A DNA stretch of 64,000 nucleotides from a bacterium (lineage in GTDB: Bacteria > SZUA-182 > DTGQ01). The first letter of the stretch is position 1. Every line of letters begins with the position of its first letter. Below are positions 5,332 through 63,759 of the stretch, one piece after another. The notes under the pieces were generated by a model. That model was given only the letters and a program-made list of their open reading frames with translations, made no database searches and was not told the origin of the DNA. The stretch spans positions 2,102 to 66,101 of the forward strand of contig JBFLZW010000041.1 in the NCBI GenBank assembly GCA_040755755.1, written 5' to 3'. Both the position numbers and the translations under genes were made by a program.

Positions 5332-6217
5332 CTCTTCCTCCTCCTTCTCCGTGCTGCTGCTGCTGCTGCATCAGACGGAGTTGCTCCCGGACCTTTTTTT
5401 CCCGCTCATCCAGGGATTGCAGTATCCTGAGGGCATCCTCTCTGGACATCTTCTGATCTTTCTTGTCCTGGTTCCCGGAATCCGGCTTACTCATGGCCGC
5501 CTCCTGCTGCTGCCGGTTTGGGTCCTGCTGAGCAGATTTTGCCTTTTCCTGCTCGCTGTTCTTTTGATCTTTCCGGTCCTGCTGGTTTCCCTGTTTTTGC
5601 TGGCCTTGCTTATTCTGCTGATCCTGTTTGCCCTGTTGATTCTTCCGGTCTTGCTGGCCCTGCTTGTTTTGTTGGTCCTGTGGGTTTTGCTGTTGATTCC
5701 GGGCCATCTCTTTCAGTTTTCGTTTGGCCAGTTCCAGGTTGAATTTGGCATCCTGGTCATCAGGCTCAAGGCCGAGAGATTTTTCGTACTGCTTGACAGC
5801 TTCGGGAAAATCATTCTGGCGGAATTTACAATTCCCAAGGTTATAGTGGGCTTTGGCCTGCACGGTACGGTCTTTTGACTGGGCCGCCTTGTGGTATTCT
5901 TCCGCTGCCTGCTCGAACTTCTCCTGCTTGAACAAAATATCCCCAATATTGAAATGGAGCACTTCCGATTCAGGATGGTCGAGCTGGGCATCCAGATATT
6001 CTTTTAATGCCTCCTCATACTTCCCCTGAGCATAGAGCTCATTCCCTCGTCTGGTTTTATTGATGAACGGGTTAGTCCAGGCCGTGCAGCAGGGGGCTGC
6101 CATAAAAAACAACATAACCACACAAACCCAAAAGAACAGAGGTGGAAATACCCTGCTCCCCTCTGTGTCTCTGTGTCTCTGTGGTTTCTTTTCCCCAAGG
6201 TACTGGTGATTCCTCAT
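5312..6217 (-). CDS. batC: BatC-like TPR protein with a Q/K/D-rich low-complexity C-terminal region
   Basis: TPR repeats are present (AQGKYEEALKEYLD, HYNLGNCKFRQNDFPEAVKQYEKSL), followed by a long QQNKQGQQDRKNQQ-type repetitive tract encoded by ~30-bp imperfect tandem DNA repeats. The ORF track extends it to 6340. The start at 6217 (MRNHQY) was chosen because it avoids overlap with batB. Confidence 0.55.
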   Translation of the reverse strand: MRNHQYLGEKKPQRHRDTEGSRVFPPLFFWVCVVMLFFMAAPCCTAWTNPFINKTRRGNELYAQGKYEEALKEYLDAQLDHPESEVLHFNIGDILFKQEKFEQAAEEYHKAAQSKDRTVQAKAHYNLGNCKFRQNDFPEAVKQYEKSLGLEPDDQDAKFNLELAKRKLKEMARNQQQNPQDQQNKQGQQDRKNQQGKQDQQNKQGQQKQGNQQDRKDQKNSEQEKAKSAQQDPNRQQQEAAMSKPDSGNQDKKDQKMSREDALRILQSLDEREKKVREQLRLMQQQQQHGEGGGRDVEYDW

Positions 6218-23927: not shown

Positions 23928-24158
23928 GGCGGGTATCATTCGAGGTCATCACGGGGATGGGAAGATTACAAAATTGTTCATCCTCAATTACTCTTTGGTA
24001 ATGAAAGAAAAAACCGCGATACAGAATTGTAATGGCTTACATGATACTCTCCCCAACCTCCCCCAAAATCCTTGATCCTTCCTTCCTGGTACAAAATTTG
24101 CCCTAAGAGCAGGGAGAATATCCGAGTAATAAGATTCCACTCACGGGGAGGAAAACCT

Positions 24159-24773
24159 ATGACTGCAATTTTCCAGGGGGGAAGTGTATTTACCTATAGT
24201 ATTTTCGCTATCTCAATAATTGCTTTGGGCTTGTTTTGCGAGCGGATTAATTACCTGTACTTTCGCTTGAAATTAAATGCTGATGATACCCTTCAGAGAA
24301 TTGTGCTCCTGCTTGAAAAAACAAATATCCGGGGCGCATTGGAAGAGTGTGTCAAGATTGAAAAGCATCCTCTTGGCCGGACCCTGAAGGCAGGGCTCCT
24401 CAGATTGAATAAAAAAGACAAGGAGATCGAAATGGCCATGGAAGAGAAAATCCTGAGAGAAATCCCGATCATCAGGGCGGGAATAAACTATATGGCTCTA
24501 TTCGCAATCATATCAATTCTCCTTGGATTTTTGGGGACGATAATGGGTTTAATAACTTTCCTCAAGGGAATGGGTCAGGAAAGCGGTACGCAGATAATTA
24601 TGGGGGGAATATCTCAGGCAATGCTCAATATTGCCCTGGGCTTGATTGTAGCCATACCATGCCTGATTGGGTATTTTATTCTCAATAACCGGGGAAATTA
24701 CCTCATTGGTCAATTGAAGGAAAAATCACTGGGCCTTTTCAATGCTCTTTCTACCCTGAGGAGCAATGCCTGA
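24159..24773 (+). CDS. MotA/TolQ/ExbB-family proton channel protein (orphan, with no ExbD/TolR/MotB partner adjacent)
   Basis: It has the TolQ-like 3-TM topology and the conserved TM2/TM3 motifs (GFLGTIMGL; ALGLIVAIPCLIGY). The ATG at 24159 is preceded by GGGGAGGA. The ORF track starts earlier, at 24072. Confidence 0.8.
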   Translation: MTAIFQGGSVFTYSIFAISIIALGLFCERINYLYFRLKLNADDTLQRIVLLLEKTNIRGALEECVKIEKHPLGRTLKAGLLRLNKKDKEIEMAMEEKILREIPIIRAGINYMALFAIISILLGFLGTIMGLITFLKGMGQESGTQIIMGGISQAMLNIALGLIVAIPCLIGYFILNNRGNYLIGQLKEKSLGLFNALSTLRSNA

Positions 24774-24830
24774 TAAGAAGGTAAAAATAAGGTTTAAATA
24801 CACGTGCATCAGAACAGTGAAGAGGAAAAG

Positions 24831-27041
24831 ATGAATCTGAAGACCGAACCGGAACAAAGCATATTGACAAATGAGTTCATCCTGAATAGTCCTCTTGTAC
24901 CAGCATGGGAAGGCAAAGAACCAGGGTTGCAGCAGGAGGATGGAAAATTCCTGGAATTTTCGATTTTCGAGGGGAAGGATTTTTTCAGGAGTGAGCGGTT
25001 CTCCAAGGGAAAGATAATCGTAGGCAAAAGCGAAGAAGCAGACATCATTCTCCAGGGGCGAAATATTTTTGATATCCACGCTTTTTTTTACCGGAACGGT
25101 GATCAGGTTTTTGTATCGGATGGAGATCTTGGCAGCGGTGTTATAGTAAATGGCAGATTTGTATCCTCCCGAGCATTAAATCCTCATGATTTAGTATTCA
25201 TAGGTCCATATACGATCAAAGTTCAGCTAGGCAAAGCTTACAGTCAGCCTTCAGGAGACGATTTTCCGGATACGAATACCGTGACAGTTCAGGCTCCGGA
25301 AGAAGATGATTCCCCGGTGACGGAGATGGATACGGATACGGTTACAACAGGCGAATATAGCAAAAATGAGCCTGATGGAATGCAGGGGATCATCCGATCA
25401 CTGGAAAATGAACCTGACCAGGTTTTTCACGACTATGAGAAGCCGGATTTGACCATACCCCCTGATGTCATGAAAGAGCAGGTTTCACCCGGAATTGAAT
25501 TATCGTGGCATGAGGAGGTAGATTTTTCCCCGACGGGTGAAGATCTGCAAATTTACTCTGATGGAGAATATCCCGATCCAGAGGTTCAAAGAATTGAAGG
25601 CAATAATGTGCCGGAAGAGGATGACCTATCGGATTTTCAATTTGAGCCGTTATTTGCTGATCCTCATCCTGATTCTCAACACGAATTGCAAGAGAAGAAA
25701 AATGAGCCGGAAGACGATTCCGGGAGCGAGAGCTATTACGATGATGCTATCTTATTAACCTTTCCTAGGGCTGAGGACAATGATCAGTCCCATTCTGAGC
25801 CGGTAGTTTTGGAAGTAGAATCGCATGAAGATCCGCGAGTGCCTCACATATTGGAATTAGATGTCAGTGCACAGGCAGAGGCTGACATCCTATCGCAGAG
25901 CAAAAGCAATGAGGTTAGACTAGATGTTCCCAATTTCCCCTTTCTGGATGAGGAGGGTGAAAATAGCCATCACCCCCACCCAACCTCCCCCCTCAAGGGG
26001 GAGGGGAAAGATGGATGTCCTCAGCAAAGATGGGGAACATCTGAGAGTGGACCGGGAACAACAATCCATTCCGAAAATCAGGAAAATCCCCAGGAGGTAT
26101 TAAAGCGGATCATCGATCAAATTTCGAATTTTTCAAGTACCGCTACTGATATACCTGCTATCCCCCAAGGGGAAAGGGACCGGACATTTACTCATCAGGA
26201 AGAGAATGATAAGTATCATGAGGACACTGAGAACCATGCCCTGGAATTTTCAACCCAGAGAGTCCAGGAACCTGGAGTCAGTGCTGGATGGACAGGGATC
26301 GAGGATCGGATTCAACCTCCCGGCATAGGATCGGAAATCGACATCCCGGCTAACCAGGTGAATAGGGAGAATACGTCCCAAGGTTCAGATATCGAACAGG
26401 TAAGAACTGGAATTCGGAGCTTTTTCCCAAAGATCCTTAGTTCAATTGAAATGGTAAAAAGAAAAGTTCAGAGTTTAACTTGTGGCCACATACTTCACAA
26501 GAAACCGGATGAAGCGGGTGATGAAGATGAGGAGATGGAGATAGAGGGAAGGGAGGATTTTGATCAGCCACCGCAACTATTGGCCAGCCAGAGTGCAGGA
26601 GAAGAAGATGATGAGGAGGAGGAAATCCTCCCCAGGATCATATTTCCGATAAAAGAAAGCCTTATGCAGTATCAGCAGCAGGAAACCATTCTGGATCCTG
26701 GCGAGGTAGTGCTTGAAGTATTGAAGTGCCGGGGAGATGATGTAGTCGATATGTGCTTTTTAACCAGGAAGGAGAAATACAGCAGTTTGAATGAATTTGG
26801 CCGGTTTTATGTGGCTGAAAACAAGGATCAGGAAACCTTTTACTTTTATTTTACCGATCAATTCAAGGGCAAAATCCAGTTCAGTGACAGTTATTCTATA
26901 GACATTGAAAGATTATCCATCATTGAAGAGGTATACCGGAAAAAAGGAAGGGTTTACCGGTGTCTGCTCCCGATGAACGGAGTAGTATCCCTGTATGACG
27001 GCAGCTATGACTATTACCTGCGACTCGTCAAGCCCGCTTAA
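24831..27041 (+). CDS. FHA-domain protein with a long acidic disordered linker and an uncharacterised C-terminal domain
   Basis: An N-terminal FHA-like fold is present (IIVGKSEEADIILQGRNIFDIHAFFYRNGDQVFVSDGDLGSGVIVNGRFV...LVFIGPYTIKV). It is followed by about 400 aa of D/E-rich sequence and then a roughly 140-aa conserved-looking C-terminal domain. The ORF track start at 24804 is a GTG. The ATG at 24831 has a GAGGAAAAG Shine-Dalgarno sequence. Confidence 0.7.
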   Translation: MNLKTEPEQSILTNEFILNSPLVPAWEGKEPGLQQEDGKFLEFSIFEGKDFFRSERFSKGKIIVGKSEEADIILQGRNIFDIHAFFYRNGDQVFVSDGDLGSGVIVNGRFVSSRALNPHDLVFIGPYTIKVQLGKAYSQPSGDDFPDTNTVTVQAPEEDDSPVTEMDTDTVTTGEYSKNEPDGMQGIIRSLENEPDQVFHDYEKPDLTIPPDVMKEQVSPGIELSWHEEVDFSPTGEDLQIYSDGEYPDPEVQRIEGNNVPEEDDLSDFQFEPLFADPHPDSQHELQEKKNEPEDDSGSESYYDDAILLTFPRAEDNDQSHSEPVVLEVESHEDPRVPHILELDVSAQAEADILSQSKSNEVRLDVPNFPFLDEEGENSHHPHPTSPLKGEGKDGCPQQRWGTSESGPGTTIHSENQENPQEVLKRIIDQISNFSSTATDIPAIPQGERDRTFTHQEENDKYHEDTENHALEFSTQRVQEPGVSAGWTGIEDRIQPPGIGSEIDIPANQVNRENTSQGSDIEQVRTGIRSFFPKILSSIEMVKRKVQSLTCGHILHKKPDEAGDEDEEMEIEGREDFDQPPQLLASQSAGEEDDEEEEILPRIIFPIKESLMQYQQQETILDPGEVVLEVLKCRGDDVVDMCFLTRKEKYSSLNEFGRFYVAENKDQETFYFYFTDQFKGKIQFSDSYSIDIERLSIIEEVYRKKGRVYRCLLPMNGVVSLYDGSYDYYLRLVKPA
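25922..26043 (+). mobile_element. MITE-like repeat copy (family with AGATGTTCCCCATCT termini) embedded in-frame in the FHA-protein CDS
   Basis: It shares about 120 bp of collinear similarity with the intergenic copy at 38984..39129. The shared parts are the left end AGATGTTCCCAAT, the CATCACCCCCACCCA...CCTCAAGGGGGAGG core and the right end AAGATGGGGAACATCT. Confidence 0.55.
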
Positions 27042-27205: not shown

Positions 27206-27523
27206 ATGGCTCCAATAGAATCTGTTTTAAATGAGATAGTGCGCAGAATCGTTGAAACTGTGCATCCAAAAAGAATTATTCTTTTTGGATCTGCTGTTCG
27301 AGGAAATATGGGACCTGACAGCGATCTGGACCTGCTCATTGTTGTATCATCGGGTGAGCATCGACGTAAGACAGCGCAGAAAATTTATAGAAATCTAATC
27401 GGCGTAGGTTTTGCAACCGATATCGTTGTGGTTACAGAAGGTGATCTGGAAAATTATAAAGATTGTATCGACCTGGTAATCCAACCGGCCCTCGAAGAAG
27501 GGAGAGTGCTCTATGCTGCGTGA
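27206..27523 (+). CDS. nucleotidyltransferase (MNT-type antitoxin) of a HEPN/MNT toxin-antitoxin pair
   Basis: The Pol-beta-like NTase motif GSAVRGNMGPDSDLDLL is present in a 105-aa protein that overlaps the following HEPN gene. Confidence 0.85.
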   Translation: MAPIESVLNEIVRRIVETVHPKRIILFGSAVRGNMGPDSDLDLLIVVSSGEHRRKTAQKIYRNLIGVGFATDIVVVTEGDLENYKDCIDLVIQPALEEGRVLYAA

Positions 27524-27926
27524 TCCGGGTGATTACCGTAATCCACATGAATGGATCAAAAGAGCAAAAAGTAATCTTATCCGTGCCCGGCAGCCTAAAG
27601 TGGAGGGGATATTATGGGAGGACCTTTGTTTTGACACTCAGCAGGCTGTGGAAAAGGCATTGAAAGCAGTGCTCTTGTCGCGGGGCATACGGTTTCGGTT
27701 TGTTCATGATATTGCTGAGCTGCTGACGATCCTTGAAAAACATGCTATTCACTTGCCTGATGAGATACGGGCCGCCGCCGGGTTGACCGATTATGCAGTG
27801 GAAACCAGATATCCGGGCACGGCTGAACCGGTTACCGAGGAGGAATTCAAAGAAGCACTCAGGACTGCTGAAGCAGTAGTCGTCTGGGCTCAGAGTTTGA
27901 TTGACGGCCCATCCTGCCAGAAGTGA
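27513..27926 (+). CDS. HEPN-domain protein (toxin partner)
   Basis: 137 aa with an Rx4H motif (RFRFVH). It overlaps the NTase gene by 11 bp, which is the typical HEPN/MNT module arrangement. Confidence 0.8.
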   Translation: MLRDPGDYRNPHEWIKRAKSNLIRARQPKVEGILWEDLCFDTQQAVEKALKAVLLSRGIRFRFVHDIAELLTILEKHAIHLPDEIRAAAGLTDYAVETRYPGTAEPVTEEEFKEALRTAEAVVVWAQSLIDGPSCQK

Positions 27927-35315: not shown

Positions 35316-35588
35316 TTTGTTGCATAGTAGATATGTTTATGGAAAGGGAGAGAGATTGTTACTGTGATCCATGGGGAACATAAGCGCCATAGATCCCCAC
35401 GCCCGTGGGGAACATTTTCAGGATACCGTGCAAAAGATCTAGGCTGTGTATCAGATGTTCCCCATCTTGTATGAGAGGCTGTCTGAAAAATAAGTGGGGG
35501 TATCTTTGAGGTGATTTATAAGTAGGACTGCTCCGAAATAAGGTGTAAGAGTAGTACATCGATAAACCTTACGTGGAGCAGCCCCAAG

Positions 35589-35891
35589 ATGGCAAGAAAA
35601 GCATATCCTCCAGACCTTACGAGCATTGAATTGGTTGATACTATGGGATTAGTTCTGATGGTGGTTGTGCCCGCTGCCAATATTCAAGATCGGGATGGAG
35701 CAAAGTTAGTGCTCGAAAAGGTTCTTGGACGATTCCCTCGGCTAAAACTGATCTGGGCCGATGGTGGTTATTCTGGAAAGTTGATTGATTGGGTCAGGGA
35801 ACAATGCCAGTGGGTCTTGGAAATAGTCAAACGATCTGATCAGTCCAAAGCGGCTGCCGCCGTACAGGATGATAATTGGCCGTGTAGTTAG
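35589..35891 (+). pseudogene. IS5-family (DDE_Tnp_1) transposase C-terminal fragment (decayed IS remnant)
   Basis: 100-aa ORF ending ...LKLIWADGGYSGKLIDWVREQCQWVLEIVKR, which is the C-terminal DDE region of IS5-type transposases. The N-terminal two-thirds is missing. Downstream sequence continues the transposase tail out of frame. Confidence 0.6.
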
Positions 35892-36692: not shown

Positions 36693-36731
36693 CCCCCTCA
36701 CCCCGACCCTCTCCCCAAAGGGGCGAGGGAG
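36693..36731 (+). repeat. GC-rich REP-like hairpin repeat (CCCTCACCCCGACCCTCTCCCCAAAGGGGCGAGGG)
   Basis: It contains the palindromic core CCCTCTCCCC-AAA-GGGGCGAGGG. An inverted near-copy lies at 62107..62149, and a related core sits inside the MITE-like elements. Confidence 0.6.
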
Positions 36732-36991
36732 AAAAACACTACTCCTCAGCTTGCCAATATGAATTCCACCTCTGCGCCTCTGCGTCTCTGCGGGAGATCA
36801 TTCTTCCATGTCTCATTGTACTAACCGGCCATGATTACAAAATGCCACTTTGAAATGAGCAGGATTTATTCATATTATACGATAAATAGATGTCAGATTG
36901 AGGTAGGGAGTTCCCGCCACAGGGGCTCCCTGAAGGTAACAGGGGATGTCGGGTGGGGGTGATTTTTGTCGAGAGGAAGGTTATCGGAAAA

Positions 36992-37918
36992 ATGGGAATT
37001 ACTGAAACAGACGAAGGGAAAAAGGAATCTCTTGAGATACTCGACTCTGGAGACGGTTTTTCAGAATCGGGGGATTTGATTCAGAAAGCGCGCCTGCCCT
37101 GGGTCGCCGGTCTTTTAACCCTGTTTGTAATCGGGCTGGGGCAGGTCTATAACGGTGAGTTAATGCAGGGGATCCGATATTACCTGGGGTCATTCGGGTT
37201 GAGCCTGCTGGCAGCCTTTTTGATCCTTTTCCTCCCCTTTCCCCTGAATCTTATGACCCTCACCCTGGGCTTTATTTACTTTATCTATATCTTTCGGATA
37301 AGCTGGAAGACAGCGAAAAGCAAAGGGAGCAATTACTGTCTGAAGCCATACAACAAGTCTTCTGTCTATATCATCTTTATTTTCCTCAGCTGGTACGTTA
37401 TCAATCCCCTGTTCTCTCAAATCACCAAGGATAATATCGTTCATGCCTATCGGGTAGTGGCCACTTCCATGCTGCCCACCATTCTGGATGGTGACCATAT
37501 TCTGGTAAATGAGCTGGTTTACAAGTTTGCTCATCCGCAAAGGCTTGATGTGGTCGTGTTTAAATATCCCAAGAACGAGAGCCAGTATTTCATCAAGCGG
37601 ATTATCGGTCTTCCGGGAGAAACAATCTGGATCCACCGTAAACAGTGCTACATCAACGGACGGCGAGTTCAGGAAAAGTACATAATTCACGCAGGGAATC
37701 AGGTGGCAAATTATCCTGAGCTGGATAATTTCGGACCCTTGACCGTCCCGCCTGATTCTTTTTTTGTCATGGGCGATAACCGGGACTGGAGCATGGACAG
37801 CAGAACATTCGGACCGGTCAAAAGATCAAAAATCCTCGGCAAGGCATTTATGATCTATTGGCCCGGTGCCCTTCACGGGCAGACAATCTGGCACCGGATC
37901 GGAAAAAAGATCCGTTAA
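36992..37918 (+). CDS. lepB: signal peptidase I
   Basis: It has an N-terminal TM region, a catalytic Ser box (VATSMLPTI) and a Lys box (KRIIGLPGE), then GDNRDWSMDSR. The ORF track starts at GTG 36953. The ATG at 36992 was preferred. Confidence 0.85.
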   Translation: MGITETDEGKKESLEILDSGDGFSESGDLIQKARLPWVAGLLTLFVIGLGQVYNGELMQGIRYYLGSFGLSLLAAFLILFLPFPLNLMTLTLGFIYFIYIFRISWKTAKSKGSNYCLKPYNKSSVYIIFIFLSWYVINPLFSQITKDNIVHAYRVVATSMLPTILDGDHILVNELVYKFAHPQRLDVVVFKYPKNESQYFIKRIIGLPGETIWIHRKQCYINGRRVQEKYIIHAGNQVANYPELDNFGPLTVPPDSFFVMGDNRDWSMDSRTFGPVKRSKILGKAFMIYWPGALHGQTIWHRIGKKIR

Positions 37919-38070: not shown

Positions 38071-38919
38071 TCAAGCCATTCTCTCCAACCGGGCAATTCT
38101 GTCTTGAAGCGGCGGATGGGTACTGAAGAGCGCCTGAAGTCCTCCGCCGTGCAGCGGGTTAATGATAAACATATGAGCAGTGGAGGGGTTGGCCTGCATT
38201 GGAACAACCCGGTTTCCCCGTTCGAGTTTGCGCAGGGCATTGGCCAGCCAGAGCGGGTGGCCGCTTATCTTTGCCCCCTCTTCATCAGCCATATATTCAC
38301 GGGACCGTGAGATAGCCATCTGAATCATCGCGGCGGCAATCGGAGCAAGGATCATCATCACCAGGGCGGCAAGAGCGTTTCCTCCTCCCCTGCGGTCGCG
38401 GTCACCGCCTCCCATTCCTCCGAAGATGAATGCCCATCTGGCCATTGAGGCCAGCATGGTAATAGCCCCGGCTATGACAGCGGCAATAGTGCTGATCAGG
38501 ATATCCCGGTGTTTGACATGCGACAGCTCATGGGCCAGCACCCCGGCCAGCTCATCGCGGTCGAGAATCCTGAGAATACCCGAAGTGACCGCCACGGCGG
38601 CATGCCTCGGATTTCTTCCCGTAGCAAAAGCATTGGGAGTATCCTGGGGGGTGATGTATATCCGCGGCATGGGAAGGCCGGCCTTTCTGGTCAGTGTTTC
38701 CACGATATCGTACAGCTCCGGTGCCTGCTCCCTGCCGACCTCCTGAGCCCGGTACATTGCCAATACAATCTTGTCACTGAACCAGTATGTGCCGACATTC
38801 ATGACGAGCGCCAACACGAAAGCCATAATCAATCCCTGTTCGCCACCTATGGCATTACCTGCAAGAACCAGCAGTACTGTCAGTAAAACCATCAAAAACG
38901 TTGTCTTGATTGAATTCAT
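38071..38919 (-). CDS. htpX: protease HtpX (M48 family zinc metalloprotease)
   Basis: It has 2 N-terminal TM helices, an HELSH zinc motif and a Gly-rich loop, and shows HtpX-like sequence throughout. Confidence 0.9.
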
Positions 38920-38983: not shown

Positions 38984-39129
38984 TAAAGATGTTCCCCATC
39001 TTCCTTATTCTTAACGAGGATGGTAAAAATAACCATCACCCCCACCCAGCCTCCCCTGCCACAGGGGCTCCCTGCCTCAAGGGGGAGGAGTGGAAGGGAT
39101 GTTCCCATCAAAGAAGGGGAACATCTGAA
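38984..39129 (+). mobile_element. MITE-like element with terminal inverted repeats AGATGTTCCCCATCT / AGATGGGGAACATCT
   Basis: It is a ~145-bp intergenic element between htpX and fmt, with perfect 15-bp terminal inverted repeats and a GC-rich core (CATCACCCCCACCCAGCCTCCCC...CCTCAAGGGGGAGG). Related copies lie at 25922..26043 and, degenerate and inverted, at ~36886..36995. Confidence 0.6.
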
Positions 39130-39139
39130 GTTGCTGCCT

Positions 39140-40090
39140 CTAGGCTGTGCCTGACCATCGCTGGCCTTCCAGTTCCTGATCGCGAACTCCCTGGAGGTAT
39201 TCCCAGGCAGACATTGCCTGTTTCCCTTCATGCTGAAGCCGGGTAATAGCCAGCATGCTGTTTTCTCCTGCCTCGACAACCAGTCCTTCCCTTCGATCAG
39301 CATGTACGATTCTACCGGGACAATCACCTCCCTGCTGCTTGACGATTTGTGCCTGCAATAATTTTATCCGTCGTCCGTTCAAATAGGAAAATGCTCCTGG
39401 CCAGGGATTCAAACCGCGAATCAACCTGCAGATTTTTTCGGCCGGCTGAGTCCAGTCGATTGCACCGTCCTCCTTTTTTAACAGCCGGGTATAGGTAGCC
39501 AGATCATTGCGCTGCTTATGGCGAATTACCTTCCCCTCCTCATACATGGCCAGTGTTTCCATCAAAACCTCCGCTCCCAGCCGGGCCAGTCGAGGAGAGA
39601 GTGTTCCTGCCGTATCATCGGGCAGGATGGCAATTTCTTTCTGCAGCAGGATATCGCCCGTATCCATGCCCGCATCCATCTGGATGGTGGTCACTCCCGT
39701 GATTTCATCTCCCTCGATGATTGCCCACTGGATCGGAGATGCTCCCCGGTGCCGGGGCAGGAGTGAGCCGTGGACATTAACGCAGCCGTGGACGGGGATC
39801 GATAACAGACTTTGTGACAGTATCTGCCCGTAGGCAACCACCACCACCAGTTCCGGCCCGGCCTGCTGAACAAGCTCCCTGCCCTGCGGACTCGATGCTT
39901 TTTCCGGCTGCTCGACGCGAAGCCCTGTTTGCTGCGCCAGGACCTTGACCGGCGAGGGATACGGCCGCTGCCCCCGTCCCTTTGGACGGTCGGGCTGGGT
40001 AATCACCATTTCGACCTGATGGCGGCTGTGAACGAGGGCCTCAAGGGATGGGCAGGAAAAATCAGCGGACCCGAAAAAGACGATCCTCAT
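39140..40090 (-). CDS. fmt: methionyl-tRNA formyltransferase
   Basis: The sequence MRIVFFGSADFSCPSLEAL...HGCVNVHGSLLPRHRGASPIQWAI is present, and the gene lies downstream of def. Confidence 0.9.
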   Translation of the reverse strand: MRIVFFGSADFSCPSLEALVHSRHQVEMVITQPDRPKGRGQRPYPSPVKVLAQQTGLRVEQPEKASSPQGRELVQQAGPELVVVVAYGQILSQSLLSIPVHGCVNVHGSLLPRHRGASPIQWAIIEGDEITGVTTIQMDAGMDTGDILLQKEIAILPDDTAGTLSPRLARLGAEVLMETLAMYEEGKVIRHKQRNDLATYTRLLKKEDGAIDWTQPAEKICRLIRGLNPWPGAFSYLNGRRIKLLQAQIVKQQGGDCPGRIVHADRREGLVVEAGENSMLAITRLQHEGKQAMSAWEYLQGVRDQELEGQRWSGTA

Positions 40091-40179
40091 CGTATTGGTT
40101 CCTCCTTATTCTCCCTTCCCCCTCCCCTGCCTGTCGCTTCTTCCATATCAGGAACTCCCCGCTCCACTCTTCTGCTTTT

Positions 40180-40257
40180 CTCTGTGTACCTCTGTGCCTC
40201 TGTGTCTCTGTGGTGTCCTTTGTCTTTGTCTCTGTTTTTGCCTTTGTCTTTACTCCC
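40180..40257 (-). repeat. dispersed repeat family with (CACAGAG)3-4 heptamer core and an A-rich flank; copy between def and fmt
   Basis: The sequence GACACCACAGAGACACAGAGGCACAGAG plus an A-rich ACAAAG flank is present. Near-identical copies lie at 43824..43882 and 59897..59955. A shorter copy lies at 6161..6184 and a CTCTGCG variant at 36769..36793. Confidence 0.7.
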
Positions 40258-43823: not shown

Positions 43824-43882
43824 AAATAAATAAAATACAAATACCAATACCAACGACACCACAGAGGCACAGAGACACAGAG
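43824..43882 (+). repeat. copy of the (CACAGAG)n repeat family between uppP and ftsK
   Basis: The sequence AAATAAATAAAATACAAATACCAATACCAACGACACCACAGAGGCACAGAGACACAGAG is present. Confidence 0.7.
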
Positions 43883-43933
43883 ATACCCGGAGAAAAGACA
43901 GGGAGTAATGTATTCATAGACAGCTCCATAACC

Positions 43934-44998: not shown

Positions 44999-47900
44999 AT
45001 GCGCGAAAAATCTGAGGGCAGGAAAAAGATATTGTGTCTTGGGATTGACATCGGATCGATCAGCGTCGACTTTGCCCTCGTTAACCAGGATCGTGAGATT
45101 ATCAGGACTTCCTATCACCGGGTCAAAGGACAGCCTATTCTCAAGACCCTTGAAGTGCTGGAGAAAGAGTTTGCCGATTTTCTGGCCGAAGATTCCATCA
45201 GCCTGTCGTTTACCGGGACCGGCGGACTGATCCTGAGCCATCTGCTGGATACGTTCTTTATCAATGAAATCATCGCCCAGATGAAAGCGGTCATCCTGCT
45301 TCATCCCGAGGCCAGAACCATTATCGAAATCGGCGGCGAGGATTCCAAACTCATTCTGCTCGACTACCAGCAGTCCTCACAATCTCTGGTCCTGAAGGAT
45401 TTTGCCATGAATACCATGTGCGCTGCGGGTACCGGCTCTTTTCTCGACCAGCAGGCTTCGCGGCTCGGCATCTCGATCGAGGAAGAGTTCGGCGAACTGG
45501 CCATGAAGTCGAAAAACCCGGCCCGTATTGCCGGGCGGTGCAGCGTTTTTGCCAAATCGGATATGATCCACCTCCAGCAGGAGGCCACCCCGGACTATGA
45601 CATCATTGCCGGGCTGTGCATGGCTATGGCCCGAAACTTCAGGGGAAGCATCGGCAAGGGGAAGGAGTTCCAGAAGCCCATTCTCTTTCAGGGAGGAGTT
45701 GCCGCCAATAAGGGCATGGTGAGGGCGTTTGAGACGCTTTTCAAGCTCGCTCCGGGAGAGTTGATCATCCCGAAGTACTATAACTGCATGGGCGCTATCG
45801 GAGCTGCCCTGGTCGCGCTCGAAACCCCGAAATTCATCAGGGGAAGGAATGTCCTGAAAACGATAGCCGATTATTTGAACCAGGACCGCTATCAGGAATC
45901 CCACCTGCCGCCGCTGCACGCTGGCAAGCCCCCGTCTTCGGGAAAACGCCCTGCGGATGCGGGAAAACCATCCGGGGCAGGGAACGGCCAGAGCGGGAGA
46001 GACGCAAAGCCGATTCCGGCCTTTCTGGGAATCGACGTCGGCTCGATCAGTACCAATGTGGTAGTGATCGACAGCAACAAAAAGGTCCTGGCAAAAAGAT
46101 ACCTGATGACTGCCGGACGCCCGATCGAAGCGGTCCGCACGGGGCTTGATGAAGTCGGGCGGGAGCTCCAGGACCGGGTCAGAATCTGCGGAGTGGGCAC
46201 CACCGGATCGGGAAGATACCTGATCGGGGATTTCGTGGGGGCCGATATCATCAAAAACGAGATCACCGCCCAGGCCAAGGCCGCGGCAGCCATTGACCGG
46301 CAGGTCGATACTATCTTCGAAATCGGCGGCCAGGATTCCAAGTACATCAGCCTCGATCAGGGTGCGGTCGTGGATTTCGAGATGAATAAGGTGTGCGCTG
46401 CCGGAACCGGCTCTTTCCTGGAAGAGCAGGCGGAAAAGATCGGCATCAATATCAAGGAGGAGTTCGGAAACCTGGCCCTCTGTGCTTCCGCTCCCGTAAG
46501 GATGGGGGAGCGCTGTACCGTATTCATGGAGTCTGACCTTGTCCACCATCAGCAGAGCGGTGCCGCCAAGGAGAACCTGGTGGCCGGTCTCAGCTATTCG
46601 ATCGTTCATAACTACCTGAACCGCGTGGTGGCCGGACGCAGGGTTGGAAACCGGATATTCTTCCAGGGCGGAGTGGCAGCCAATAAAGGCGTGGTCGCTG
46701 CCTTCGGGCAGGTCCTGCAAAAGCCGGTGATCGTTCCCGAACACCACGAAGTTACCGGGGCCATCGGCGTGGCCCTGATCGCCCAGGAGGAGCAGACCTG
46801 GACCCAGAGCAAATTCCGGGGATTTGATCTGAGCCACCGCCGCTATGAAATCGAGAGCTTTGAATGCGCAGGATGCGCCAATCACTGCCAGATTAAAAAG
46901 GTCGTGCTCGATCAGGACCGGCCGCTTTTCTACGGCAGCCGGTGTGACCGCTACGATGAAAAAAAAGGAGAAAAACTCTCCGCCCATCCCCTCGATCTGT
47001 TTGCCTTCCGGTCACAGGAGCTTCACCGGCAGTACCTGACTCCAGCCGGGGATTCATCTTCTTCCAGCGCGCCTCGCACAAAGATAGGTATCCCCTTATG
47101 CCTGTTCTTTCACGAGTGGCTTCCCTTCTGGCGGACCTTCTTTACGGCCCTGGGGCTTGAAGTCATCCTCTCTCAGGCAACGAACAAGGAGATCATCAAC
47201 CAGGGGGTACAGGCGGCTGTGGACGATACCTGCTTTCCCATCAAGGTGGCCTATGGACATATCCATAACCTCCTCCGGCAAAAGGTCGATTATCTCTTTT
47301 TGCCCAGCATCATCAACATGCCAACCGAGCAGAACGGTATCCATGACAGTTTCAACTGTCCCTACGTCCAGACGATTCCCTACACCGCCGCCGCGGCTAT
47401 CAATATCGAACAGAGCGGGACAAAGCTTCTGCGGCCTGTGGTATACCTGCGAAGAGGACTGAAATCTATCCGCAAAAGCCTCATCCCCCTTGGCCGAAGC
47501 CTGGGAAAATCCGCGGCGGACACCGGAAAAGCCATTGACCGGGCTTACGCTGCCCAAAGCTCCTTCCATGCCGCCCTCCAAAAAAAGGGAGAAGAGATTA
47601 TCAGCACACTCCCGGAACAGGAGAAGGCAATGGTCCTGATCAGCCGGCCCTACAATGGCTGCGATTTCGGGCTGAATCTGGAGATTCCCAGAATTTTTCG
47701 CGAAATGGGCTTTCTGATCATTCCGATGGACTTTCTGCCGCTCCACCAGAACCAGATCGCCGAAAACTGGCCCAATATGTACTGGCGCTACGGGCAAAGA
47801 ATCCTGAGCGCTGCCCGGTTTATCCGAACACGGGCAAACTTGTATGCCATCTACCTGACGAATTTCAGCTGCGGCCCTGATTCGTTCATCACCCAGTTTT

Positions 47901-55294: not shown

Positions 55295-55836
55295 GTTGAG
55301 TTTGGCATGCCATTTGCATTAATGAACGTGGTAACGAAATAAATGCCCAGACCGGGGAGCTTCAACATGGCGGTGAATTGTGGGGGATGTTCGAAAACAT
55401 ATTGGAGCCCTTCCGGCCACGACAACTGAAGCGGAAAATCTGATTATTGCGAATTGTGAACGGTAATTTTCTCTGGTGACTGCGAACAAACTACTTGCGG
55501 AGCTTCGACTACACACGACAAATCCTATGACTGCTGGGTGAATGCTGCTGCTCACGAGGTATGGGAACTTTGCTCTCTGATCTGGGCTTTTATTACTGTC
55601 ATGGCACTGTTATGAGTGATTGTTGCCAGAGCCGACAGGAATTCTGCACTCAAATCTTGCTGGGCGGAATCCGGAAAGAGCGTGGCCGGCGTGCCCCTGT
55701 TGTGGACTGGCCTTCCAGAATCTGTATAAATTTTTACCAGGCACGATAGTGAGCTCGTCTCTCAGATCGAGGTATAGTATCTATATGTAATATTTATTCA
55801 TAACTTATACTAATTAATAACTATTTTAGCTTTATT

Positions 55837-55936
55837 TCTCCTGACTTCTGGCTCCTGATTTCTGACTTCCGGTTTCTGACTCCTGACTTCGCTCTCCTGA
55901 CCACGGACCATTGACTTTTGGCTCCTGACTCCGGGC
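55837..55936 (+). repeat. tandem heptamer/14-mer repeat array (CTCCTGA CTTCTGG)n upstream of the wza promoter
   Basis: It consists of 14 consecutive 7-bp units with TGA/TGG at fixed phase (ctcctga cttctgg ctcctga tttctga cttccgg tttctga ctcctga ...). Confidence 0.8.
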
Positions 55937-56006
55937 TTGGATCTCCTTAACTTGTAATTTACTAAATTTTACAATAAGTTTCTTACATAGCTGTCTGAAA
56001 AACTAG

Positions 56007-57249: not shown

Positions 57250-57431
57250 ATTTAGCTGTTTATCCATCAAAGTTTATCTCCTCATAAGTTATATCTCAAG
57301 GTTTGGGTTTTCCCTTTCAGCATCACCATGCAGCGTTTTATTTGAAGTATGTATGTGCAGGAATAATTGTCGGTGTGGTTGTATGGCCGGGTTATCATTG
57401 CATCAGGTAACTCACAGGGCGAAGCTATTTT

Positions 57432-57503
57432 CAGGAGTCAGAATCCAGAAGTCAGAAGTCAGGAGAAGAGGATTGCTTATTCTGACTCCTGACTCCTGAC
57501 TCC
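57432..57503 (+). repeat. inverted array of the same heptamer repeat (AGTCAGA/TCTGACT) forming a long imperfect palindrome between wza and wzc
   Basis: The sequence CAGGAGTCAGAATCCAGAAGTCAGAAGTCAGGAG ... TTCTGACTCCTGACTCCTGACTCC is present. Confidence 0.75.
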
Positions 57504-57566
57504 AGGGTACGATATAGTTCAAACTTAAGGATAGTTGCCACAATCAGTATAGGGGAATACTTATCT

Positions 57567-59896: not shown

Positions 59897-59955
59897 AAAA
59901 TACGAAATACAAAATGAAAATACAAAGGACACCACAGAGACACAGAGGCACAGAG
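59897..59955 (+). repeat. copy of the (CACAGAG)n repeat family between wzc and rfbD
   Basis: The sequence AAAATACGAAATACAAAATGAAAATACAAAGGACACCACAGAGACACAGAGGCACAGAG is present. Confidence 0.7.
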
Positions 59956-59981
59956 AAAAGCGAAGATAGATCAGGGAGATC

Positions 59982-62106: not shown

Positions 62107-62149
62107 CTCCCTCGCCCCTTGGGGGAGAGGGTTGGGGTGAGGGGGATGG
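62107..62149 (-). repeat. second copy of the GC-rich REP-like hairpin repeat, between rfbB and rfbA
   Basis: The sequence CTCCCTCGCCCCTTGGGGGAGAGGGTTGGGGTGAGGGGGATGG is the reverse complement of the 36693 copy, with a few substitutions. Confidence 0.6.
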
Positions 62150-62205: not shown

Positions 62206-63099
62206 ATGAAAGGTATCATTCTTGCCGGGGGGTCGGGAACACGGCTGTATCCCATCACCCAGGTTGTGAGCAAGCAGCTTATGCCGGTGTATGACAAGCC
62301 GATGATTTACTATCCCTTGTCGGTACTCATGCTGGCCGGGATCCGGGAGATTCTGGTCATTTCCACGCCGTCGGATTTGCCCCGGTTCCGGGAGCTTCTG
62401 GGGGACGGGACCCAATGGGGTCTTTCCTTCTCGTATGCCGAGCAGCCCCGTCCGGAGGGCCTGGCGCAGGCTTTTATCATCGGCCGGGAATTTGTCGGCA
62501 GCGACTCGGTTTCCCTGATCCTGGGGGATAATATCTTCTATGGCCATGATCTGGTGAAAATCCTCCGACGGGCAGCAGCCCAGAGCGAAGGAGCGACCAT
62601 TTTCGGCTATTGGGTGCGGGACCCGGAACGCTACGGGGTGGTGTCCTTCGATGAGAGCGGGCAGGCAATAAGCATCGAGGAAAAGCCGGCCCGGCCGAAA
62701 TCTCACTATGCCGTGACCGGCCTGTATTTCTATGACAGCCGGGTCCTGGACATAGCCCTTGGCCTGAAGCCTTCGGCCAGGGGAGAGCTGGAAATCACCG
62801 ATGTCAATCGGACGTATCTTGCATTGGGGGCTCTCAAAGTGGAAAAACTGGGCCGGGGCATTGCCTGGCTGGATACCGGGACCCATGAGTCCCTGCTTCA
62901 GGCATCGAACTTTATCGAAGTCGTCGAGCACCGCCAGGGGCTGAAAATTGCCTGTATCGAGGAAATCGCCTACCGCCTCGGCTATATCGATGCCAGCCAG
63001 GTGGAGAGCCTGGCCGGATGTCTGGCCAAGAACAGCTATGGTCAATACCTGCTGCATATGCTGCAAGCAACTGACCGGGAACAGGACATAGCGCCATGA
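62206..63099 (+). CDS. rfbA: glucose-1-phosphate thymidylyltransferase
   Basis: The sequence [18 protein letters not shown]...LGDNIFYG is RmlA-like. Confidence 0.95.
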
Positions 63100-63194
63100 A
63101 CGTTTTCCGTACGTTAGATGTTCCCCATCTTGTATAGAAGTATCCAATACACTATAATGATACAAGCAGTGGAGAACTTTCCAGGAGGCAAGCT

Positions 63195-63416
63195 ATGAAA
63201 CAGGATATAAAAATCACTTCTCAGCACGAGCAAAGCCTTGTTGAGAAGATCCGCAGTCTTTCGCCTGAGAGGATTGCCGAGGTGGAAGACTTTATTGACT
63301 TCCTGTGTCAGCGCGACCTGGATCATCGTCTGACCCAATCGGCTGCCAGGCTCTCTGAACCAGCATTTCAAAAGGTATGGGATAATCCTGACGATGCAGA
63401 CTATGATCAGCTATGA
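63195..63416 (+). CDS. putative type II antitoxin
   Basis: 73-aa ORF overlapping the start of the downstream MazF/PemK-like toxin. Its own sequence is not diagnostic. Confidence 0.5.
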   Translation: MKQDIKITSQHEQSLVEKIRSLSPERIAEVEDFIDFLCQRDLDHRLTQSAARLSEPAFQKVWDNPDDADYDQL

Positions 63417-63759
63417 ATTTGGTGATGTTGTCCTTGTCCCGTTTCCTTTCACCGATCAGTCAGTCAGCAAAAAACGCCCGGCCATAGTCGTCAGCTCCAG
63501 CGCTTATCACCGGGAGCGTCAAGATATTGTCCTCATGGCGGCGACGAGCCAGATAAAACCATCGGCATCTTTTGGCGAAGTTACGATCGCTCAATGGGAG
63601 CAAGCCGGTCTCCTTAAACCATCAGTAATTAAGCCGATCTTTACCACGATCGAGAAGCTGCTTGTCTTGAGAAAGCTCGGAAGGCTCGATAAACGAGACA
63701 GGCGGAATCTTCAAGAGAGCCTTCGAGAGATTCTGGGCGAAGACGATGGTCACGGTTAA
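63403..63759 (+). CDS. MazF/PemK-family toxin (mRNA interferase-like)
   Basis: The sequence MISYEFGDVVLVPFPFTDQSVSKKRPAIVVSS is the PemK/MazF N-terminal signature. The ORF track start is 63394. Confidence 0.7.
   Translation: MISYEFGDVVLVPFPFTDQSVSKKRPAIVVSSSAYHRERQDIVLMAATSQIKPSASFGEVTIAQWEQAGLLKPSVIKPIFTTIEKLLVLRKLGRLDKRDRRNLQESLREILGEDDGHG

Follow-up and report, generated by a model that had tools for sequence, protein, structure and literature searches.

The DNA analysed was a 64-kb stretch of contig JBFLZW010000041.1 (the window; window positions are used throughout), and the subject of this report is a small repeat that lies inside one of its genes. On the plus strand, an open reading frame (ORF) at 24804..27041 encodes an FHA-domain protein of 745 aa and is directly preceded by a MotA/ExbB-family gene (24072-24773). 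Pfam places FHA and Yop-YscD_cpl domains in the protein at aa 55-139. An extended linker, acidic with 24% Asp+Glu, runs from about aa 146 to 633, and the C-terminus, from about aa 634 to 745, is formed by a beta domain that is conserved. In the AlphaFold2 model, which was built on a shallow alignment of five sequences and should be read cautiously, the predicted local distance difference test (pLDDT) score was about 80 for the FHA domain and 50-73 for the C-terminal beta domain; aa 146-633 were unstructured, with a linker pLDDT <50, and the insert at aa 373-417 scored 31-42. This insert is encoded by a 123-nt copy of a non-autonomous MITE (miniature inverted-repeat transposable element) at 25921-26043, and a second full copy, of 142 nt, is located between genes at 38986-39127 (plus strand).

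The ends of the element were set by the register of metagenome MITEs sharing its terminal inverted repeat (TIR) and were then applied to the window copies. The location given in the original prediction was retained in this way and the borders were refined to 25921-26043 and 38986-39127. The two copies were aligned with MAFFT and compared by BLASTN within the window. Positions 25922-26043 were collinear with 38987-39126 from end to end, the same blocks being found in the same order in both copies (AGATGTTCCC.., the exact 16-mer CCATCACCCCCACCCA, CCTCAAGGGGGAGG and ..GGGGAACATCT), and BLASTN gave 71.8% identity over 142 columns (E = 1e-19). The identity between the copies is about 72-79%. They are distinguished by a single 18-nt gap (TGCCACAGGGGCTCCCTG, at 39057-39074) and a 1-nt indel; the gap had been noticed before as some 17 bp missing, and its length is 18 nt, that is, one hairpin module. 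The 16-mer CCATCACCCCCACCCA occurs twice against 0.05 occurrences expected, the terminal 11-mer (up to one mismatch) 10 times against 2.1 expected, an enrichment of about five-fold, and GGGGAACAT eight times against 0.86 expected. Chance similarity of the two copies is excluded.

The family TIR is 17 nt long with the consensus CAGATGTTCCCCATCTT. In the FHA copy, the left TIR (25921..25937, plus strand; TAGATGTTCCCAATTTC) is decayed and agrees with the consensus at 13/17 positions, and the right TIR (26027..26043, plus strand; AAGATGGGGAACATCTG) agrees, as its reverse complement, at 17/17; the TIRs of the intergenic copy agree at 16/17 positions each. The left spacer of the FHA copy (25938..25966, plus strand) encodes ..PFLDEEGENS..; no other part is as well conserved among the in-frame copies described below. 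Folded as single strands, both window copies form long TIR-closed hairpins, with a stability above that of shuffled sequences (z = -3.5 to -4.9). The FHA copy is flanked by AGGTTAGAC (25912..25920, plus strand) and AGAGTGGAC (26044..26052, plus strand), the putative left and right copies of a decayed 9-bp target-site duplication (TSD); they agree at 6/9 bases, and at least six matches were found in 1.8% of equally spaced 9-mer pairs of the window (P = 0.018). The duplication looked for at the borders is suggested by this 6/9 agreement in a 9-bp register, without a clean repeat.

Element and duplication together account for 123 + 9 = 132 nt, or 44 codons, and the reading frame of the FHA gene is therefore kept. 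Stop codons interrupt four of the six frames through the FHA copy, and the gene reads one of the two open ones; the copy encodes 41 residues, ..DVPNFPFLDEEGENSHHPHPTSPLKGEGKDGCPQQRWGTS.., and the peptide originally quoted for it is the exact translation of the ORF. The intergenic copy, for which 142 + 9 is not a multiple of three, would shift the frame and contains three stops in the frame of the FHA gene. Both neighbouring genes are on the minus strand: it is placed 12 nt downstream of the stop codon of fmt (39140-40090) and upstream of a gene for an M48 peptidase (38071-38919). Copies of 123 and 142 nt without a transposase gene, whose sole open frames are short read-through peptides, are of the size of MITEs (below about 300 bp), and they are dispersed in multiple copies, with two full copies and two solo TIRs within the 64-kb window.

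Orthologues of the FHA protein lack the segment. The closest one found (P0002, 673 aa, JGI 3300009503) is ~75-80% identical to the window protein in the N- and C-terminal domains, and its locus (L009) shares the MotA_ExbB-FHA gene order with the window. In its linker, short anchor blocks flank the insert site (..LLTFP.. and ..P.EVL.RIIDQIS..) with unrelated sequence between them, and neither the element peptide nor the TIR is present in this protein. The segment is absent also from the more distant orthologues P0003-P0005 (453-471 aa), and in P0002-P0005 conservation is confined to the N- and C-terminal domains. The comparison with orthologues, which had been proposed earlier as a check on the insertion, is therefore in its favour.

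The element peptide was also detected in other proteins. A first, word-indexed protein search tied the FHA protein to two polyketide synthase (PKS)-like 'SDR family' proteins through the element peptide alone. An exhaustive HMMER search of 1.84 billion representative proteins with a profile of this peptide found it in full in four proteins (the FHA protein, P0006, P0008 and P0009), and the second PKS fragment (P0007), with two copies, came from the first search, giving at least six in-frame copies in five proteins. The profile covered the peptide of one frame alone, and copies read in the other open frame would escape it. It also caught P0010-P0018, small spurious ORFs made of triplex-type motifs; a word-indexed protein search with an alignment of four peptides gave no matches. 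The peptide shared by the in-frame copies is ..LDEEGENSHHPHPxSPLKGE.., of which LDEE.EN.HHPHP.SP.KGE is invariant among the six. The NCBI accessions of the five host proteins fall in the range MEW6378038-MEW6380988, each with the label 'MAG: ... [bacterium]'; this narrow accession range suggests that they come from one metagenome-assembled genome (MAG), that of the window. The copies in P0006-P0009 are known as protein sequence.

All in-frame inserts were located between or outside Pfam domains. P0006, a PKS-like reductase with ketoreductase (KR), acyl carrier protein (ACP) and reductase domains, carries the insert between the ACP (377-442) and NAD_binding_4 (from 526); like the copy in the FHA gene it has 41 residues (123 nt), and the two are 83% identical. 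In the PKS-like P0007, one insert is found in the gap between the KR and the methyltransferase domain and the other between the methyltransferase domain and the ACP. The insert of P0008, an N-6 DNA methylase, is just past the N6_Mtase domain, and that of P0009, a FliK protein of 2250 aa, falls among the repeats of the protein's centre, at a great distance from the Flg_hook domain. P0009 is unusually long for FliK, and its centre is composed of about 15 or more degenerate units of ~50 residues (..QAEPDQKGELNPEPV..).

These repeat units served as internal empty-site controls for MITE insertion. Deleting 61 aa (183 nt = 174 + 9) from FliK restores the unit consensus VKQDEHTLQAETEQ, which is present in 14 paralogous units, and the EHT on either side of the insert is a duplicated target, equivalent at the protein level to a 9-bp TSD. 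The FliK copy is the cleanest proof of insertion.

The TIR was found in further elements when metagenomes were scanned for both termini 90-120 nt apart, which returned 28 loci. Twenty of them were elements of 121-141 nt with the same 17-nt TIR, 18 of these from metagenome Ga0315268, and their interior was A+T-rich and unrelated to that of the window MITE. Twelve of the 20 had perfect 9/9 TSDs and three more had 7-8/9. Fixed-length duplications left by staggered cuts are a signature of DDE transposition, and the 17-nt TIR would therefore be that of a cut-and-paste system whose staggered cuts are 9 bp apart. The metagenome elements (L013-L037 from Ga0315268, L010 from Ga0315282, and L020) represent a young and abundant MITE family, with TTGACAGGATAACAGGAT subterminal repeats, length variants and both orientations. 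Among the remaining matches, L031, L032, L034 and L036 were rejected as MITEs, since they share the same 123-nt homologous stretch, have no TSD and look like a conserved gene, and L011, L012, L019 and L022 are unrelated to the MITE family. The spacer-plus-core pattern AAAATARCCATCACCCCCACCC gave no matches in the metagenome scan, and the composite family is thus absent from the JGI contigs searched. A scan of viral contigs for the 17-nt TIR returned chance matches inside A+T-rich genes only, and no Rfam family was matched at the gathering score, with only meaningless eukaryotic matches at E up to 10.

The core of the FHA copy (25973..26004, minus strand) has the G+C-rich sequence CCTCCCCC-TTGAG-GGGGGAGG-TTG-GGTGGGGG. 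Read on the minus strand, it has three arms, the first of pyrimidines, the second of purines complementary to the first, and the third a G/T mirror arm, and from this architecture it is a putative class II intrastrand-triplex motif of the BoxC/PIT type (BoxC, PIT and TMECO; Holder et al. 2015, PMC4666352). Its plus-strand translation in the FHA gene is HPHPTSPLKGEG (HHPHPxSPLKGE type). A strict search for three-arm motifs matched nothing else in the window and gave 0 matches in 30 shuffles, and a hairpin is present at the core in the predicted fold. In the intergenic copy, the first core arm is split by the 18-nt hairpin module (39057..39074, plus strand) that is missing from the FHA copy. The module recurs at 36913-36932 and, elsewhere, inside protein-borne copies as PCHRGS or ATGAP, and the copies vary in the number and position of their small hairpin modules. 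The region 36913-36963, just upstream of a signal peptidase gene (36953-37918), is a fragmentary, rearranged piece of MITE core in which the module GCCACAGGGGCTCCCTG is followed by GGGTGGGGGTGAT.

In a pattern search of the window, the MITE cores did not match the published consensus CCCTCNCCC-N3-6-GGGNGAGGG-N3-GGGNGAGGG. The TMECO/BoxC consensus was matched exactly at two intergenic sites, 36695-36729 (minus strand) and 62109-62143 (plus strand), with the sequence CCCTCGCCCCTTTGGGGAGAGGGTCGGGGTGAGGG and a near-twin. The motif at 36695-36729 is one loop base off the E. coli K-12 sequences listed in PMC4666352, a striking conservation for an unclassified MAG. A genome scan with the 24-mer of the MITE core, in a collection to which the source genome does not belong, found the core without TIRs as eight isolated triplex-type motifs in eight genomes of distant phyla.

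Both solo TIRs of the window are on the plus strand. The one at 35452..35472 (CAGATGTTCCCCATCTTGTAT) directly adjoins a truncated insertion sequence (IS) of the IS5 family (35473-35890) at its inverted repeat. The second, at 63115..63135, has the identical 20-mer (AGATGTTCCCCATCTTGTAT) and is flanked by a nucleotidyl-transferase gene (62206-63099) and, downstream, by a DUF2281/MazF toxin-antitoxin pair (63195-63759); this TIR was considered as a source of a promoter and discarded, as the promoter scan showed nothing there. The IS5 remnant retains its left inverted repeat, GAGAGGCTGTCTGAAAAAT, and an internal DDE_Tnp_1 fragment, but neither the N-terminal part nor the right end; the repeat was confirmed by a full-length relative in L038, which ends AGAGCTTGTCTGAAAAGT. 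As parent transposase of the MITE, the DDE_Tnp_1 fragment (35526-35888) was rejected, being an IS5-family remnant (NF033580) with its own, different inverted repeat from 35473. The MITE TIR is outside the IS5 element and unequal to its inverted repeat, which argues against derivation of the MITE from this element. An IS5-type end interrupts a MITE copy likewise at L026:3418-3470, and MITEs of this TIR family may be preferred IS5 targets.

Immediately 3' of the FHA-protein gene, at 27206-27926, there is a nucleotidyltransferase/HEPN pair (a type II toxin-antitoxin-like module). Taken with the IS remnant and the MazF pair, it suggests that the region is rich in mobile or accessory DNA. Other repeats were also recorded. 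A CTCTGTG / CACAGAG-rich intergenic family is present in both orientations at 6160-6193, 36769-36801, 40175-40246, 43833-43905 and 59912-59978; two arms of 65 nt (40175-40239 and 43833-43897) form a pair separated by 3.6 kb. Short repeats of the TGACTYCTG type are clustered at 55836-55942 and 57431-57513, inverted and about 1.5 kb apart, around one or more genes. The segments 45317-45502 and 46310-46477, about 75% identical and roughly 1 kb apart, are unrelated to the MITE and probably belong to tandem paralogous genes.

These data are best explained by an old, tolerated in-frame insertion of a MITE in a permissive, disordered linker of the FHA protein, a reading to which we assign a probability of roughly 0.8. 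The central claim of the original prediction, an in-frame MITE-like insertion in a permissive linker, is upheld by the TIRs, the TSD remnant, the 44 codons, the absence of the segment from orthologues, the non-coding copy and the other in-frame copies. The insertion is considered old because the left TIR is conserved at 13/17 positions, the TSD at 6/9 and the copies are 72-79% identical to each other, and the suggestion that it was very recent was for the same reasons abandoned. According to the proposed mechanism, a transposase making 9-bp staggered cuts would move the family in trans, and the linker that separates the FHA domain from the conserved C-terminal domain, long, acidic and unstructured, would have received one copy. 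Survival of the gene would be due to the addition of exactly 44 codons, the availability of one stop-free frame and a target region that tolerates extra residues. The 41 residues encoded by the element would be a passenger peptide rather than a selected module, and the same family would have colonised interdomain linkers of at least four further proteins, apparently of the same MAG. Transposase type, mobilisation in trans and neutrality of the peptide are what we infer from the features above.

Several points weigh against this reading. The DNA evidence for the element is limited to the window copies, the other in-frame copies being seen as peptide only, and their attribution to the same MAG has the accession range as its sole basis. 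The identical frame of all the in-frame copies is an ascertainment effect, because the peptide of only one frame was searched. The exact empty site is not recoverable in the FHA gene, as the linker of the nearest orthologue is unalignable at the nucleotide level. The flanks of the intergenic copy agree at 3/9 bases only and those of the FHA copy at 6/9, and the TSD of the two DNA copies of the window is suggestive, not proven. A search of the window, the 42 fetched loci and viral contigs yielded no autonomous element with these TIRs; it did not extend to the source genome beyond the window and hence does not show absence. The sole transposase remnant nearby is the IS5-family fragment, with a different inverted repeat.

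The original prediction had offered exaptation as an explanation, by which the element peptide was recruited as a functional spacer or interaction motif and is now kept by selection at the protein level. Six open in-frame copies in five proteins, with LDEE.EN.HHPHP.SP.KGE invariant and all of them within interdomain linkers, would be expected from such a module, as would an FHA copy that is still open despite the decay of its TIR and TSD. However, the intergenic copy conserves the same stretch of DNA although it is not translated in that frame, so that shared ancestry of the DNA accounts for the conservation of the peptide. Moreover, the orthologues function without the segment, AlphaFold2 predicts no structure at the insert (pLDDT 31-42), and the search could detect open copies of one frame only, which biases the count of open copies. 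Positive evidence for exaptation was not obtained, and we regard it as improbable. A related proposal is that the family itself is adapted to intragenic life, with length classes of 123 and 174 nt divisible by three, a stop-free hydrophilic frame and linkers as safe havens in the manner of Rickettsia palindromic elements (RPEs), and that it is in addition a vehicle spreading motifs of the BoxC/PIT type; this is put forward as a speculative extension, rather doubtful at present.

The family might also have spread without a transposase of the DDE type, either by mobilisation through a tyrosine transposase, as in repetitive extragenic palindromic (REP) sequences and REPINs, or by recombination or slippage promoted by triplexes or hairpins, with terminal repeats that are structural rather than transposase sites. 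REPs and REPINs are short imperfect palindromes bearing a conserved 5' tetranucleotide and moved by a RAYT transposase, and they leave no TSD. The occurrence of the BoxC/PIT-type core alone, without these TIRs, in distant phyla, the differences among copies in the number and position of hairpin modules, and the lack of a clean TSD at the two window copies would agree with such a process. Against it, an identical 17-nt TIR bounds an unrelated interior with perfect 9-bp TSDs in other metagenomes, the FliK copy has a 9-bp duplication, and duplications of a fixed length point to DDE transposition instead of the REP type; spread by these means is thus somewhat less credible still than exaptation. 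Least probable of all, by a clear distance, is an artefact in which the MAG contig was mis-joined at the repeat, or the ORF miscalled, so that the N- and C-terminal parts of the FHA protein do not form one gene. Repeats are classic sites of mis-assembly in metagenomes and the source is a MAG, but single proteins of independent assemblies (P0002-P0005) contain orthologues of both ORF halves in unchanged order, the upstream MotA_ExbB gene is syntenic, and sequence homologous to P0002 resumes on either side of the insert within the linker, with the frame exact.

On the basis of an old, tolerated MITE insertion, some consequences can be indicated. Gene colonisation in frame by small repeats is best documented in Rickettsia, and the window MITE represents a second, independent system, in which clear TIRs and a measurable 9-bp target duplication ease the tracing of the mechanism. 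In multidomain proteins (PKS modules, FliK, FHA scaffolds), it can alter the length and sequence of a linker in one step, and the peptide can cause spurious matches across protein families, for example between the FHA protein and PKS. A BoxC-like core within a transposon also constitutes a testable route for the spread of widely conserved motifs across bacterial phyla. The features worth recording are that at least five proteins, apparently of a single uncultured bacterium, have had their linkers colonised, and that a mobile element has a BoxC-like core of the triplex type inside it; they will not surprise a specialist in bacterial repeats, yet they provide a clean and tractable example.

In comparison with known systems, size, TIRs and the 9-bp duplication place the window element among the ordinary bacterial MITEs. 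By the description given for it in PMC6382973, MITEAba12 of Acinetobacter is likewise non-autonomous, about 110-140 bp long, bounded by TIRs and flanked by 9-bp TSDs; it is described there as IS-derived, whereas no parent IS was found for the window MITE. The Ga0315268 MITEs (L010, L013-L037) and the window MITE have the identical 17-nt TIR CAGATGTTCCCCATCTT and a similar size range (121-141 nt in the Ga0315268 MITEs), which implies that they were moved by a related transposase. The former differ in their TTGACAGGATAACAGGAT.. subterminal repeats, A+T-rich composition, lack of a triplex core, young age with perfect TSDs, and host.

The core shares with BoxC/PIT/TMECO (PMC4666352) the same class II three-arm architecture, with arms (CCTCCCCC/GGGGGAGG/GGTGGGGG) different from those of the BoxC consensus (CCCTCNCCC..GGGNGAGGG..GGGNGAGGG). 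The motif of E. coli was reported to be always intergenic and without association with transposons (PMC4666352), while that of the MITE is inside a TIR-bounded element and is translated in genes.

The insertion in a coding sequence had originally been called uncommon, which holds in a relative sense only, as a 2024 review considers in-frame MITE-ORF fusions 'not unusual' and RPEs the extreme case (PMC10969869). As summarised in PMC10969869 and PMC3184786 (Ogata et al. 2000), RPEs resemble the window MITE in being short (about 105-150 bp) palindromic repeats found both in intergenic regions and inside unrelated genes, where they are read through in frame as a conserved peptide at positions compatible with fold and function. 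The likeness is one of behaviour, not of homology, and no relationship of sequence is claimed. The window MITE differs from RPEs in its clear 17-nt TIRs, 9-bp TSD and triplex-type core, in the far smaller number of genic copies known (against 44 in R. conorii according to the same summaries) and in its host, an unclassified and apparently free-living MAG instead of Rickettsia. The window element is a new MITE family that behaves like the Rickettsia palindromic elements.

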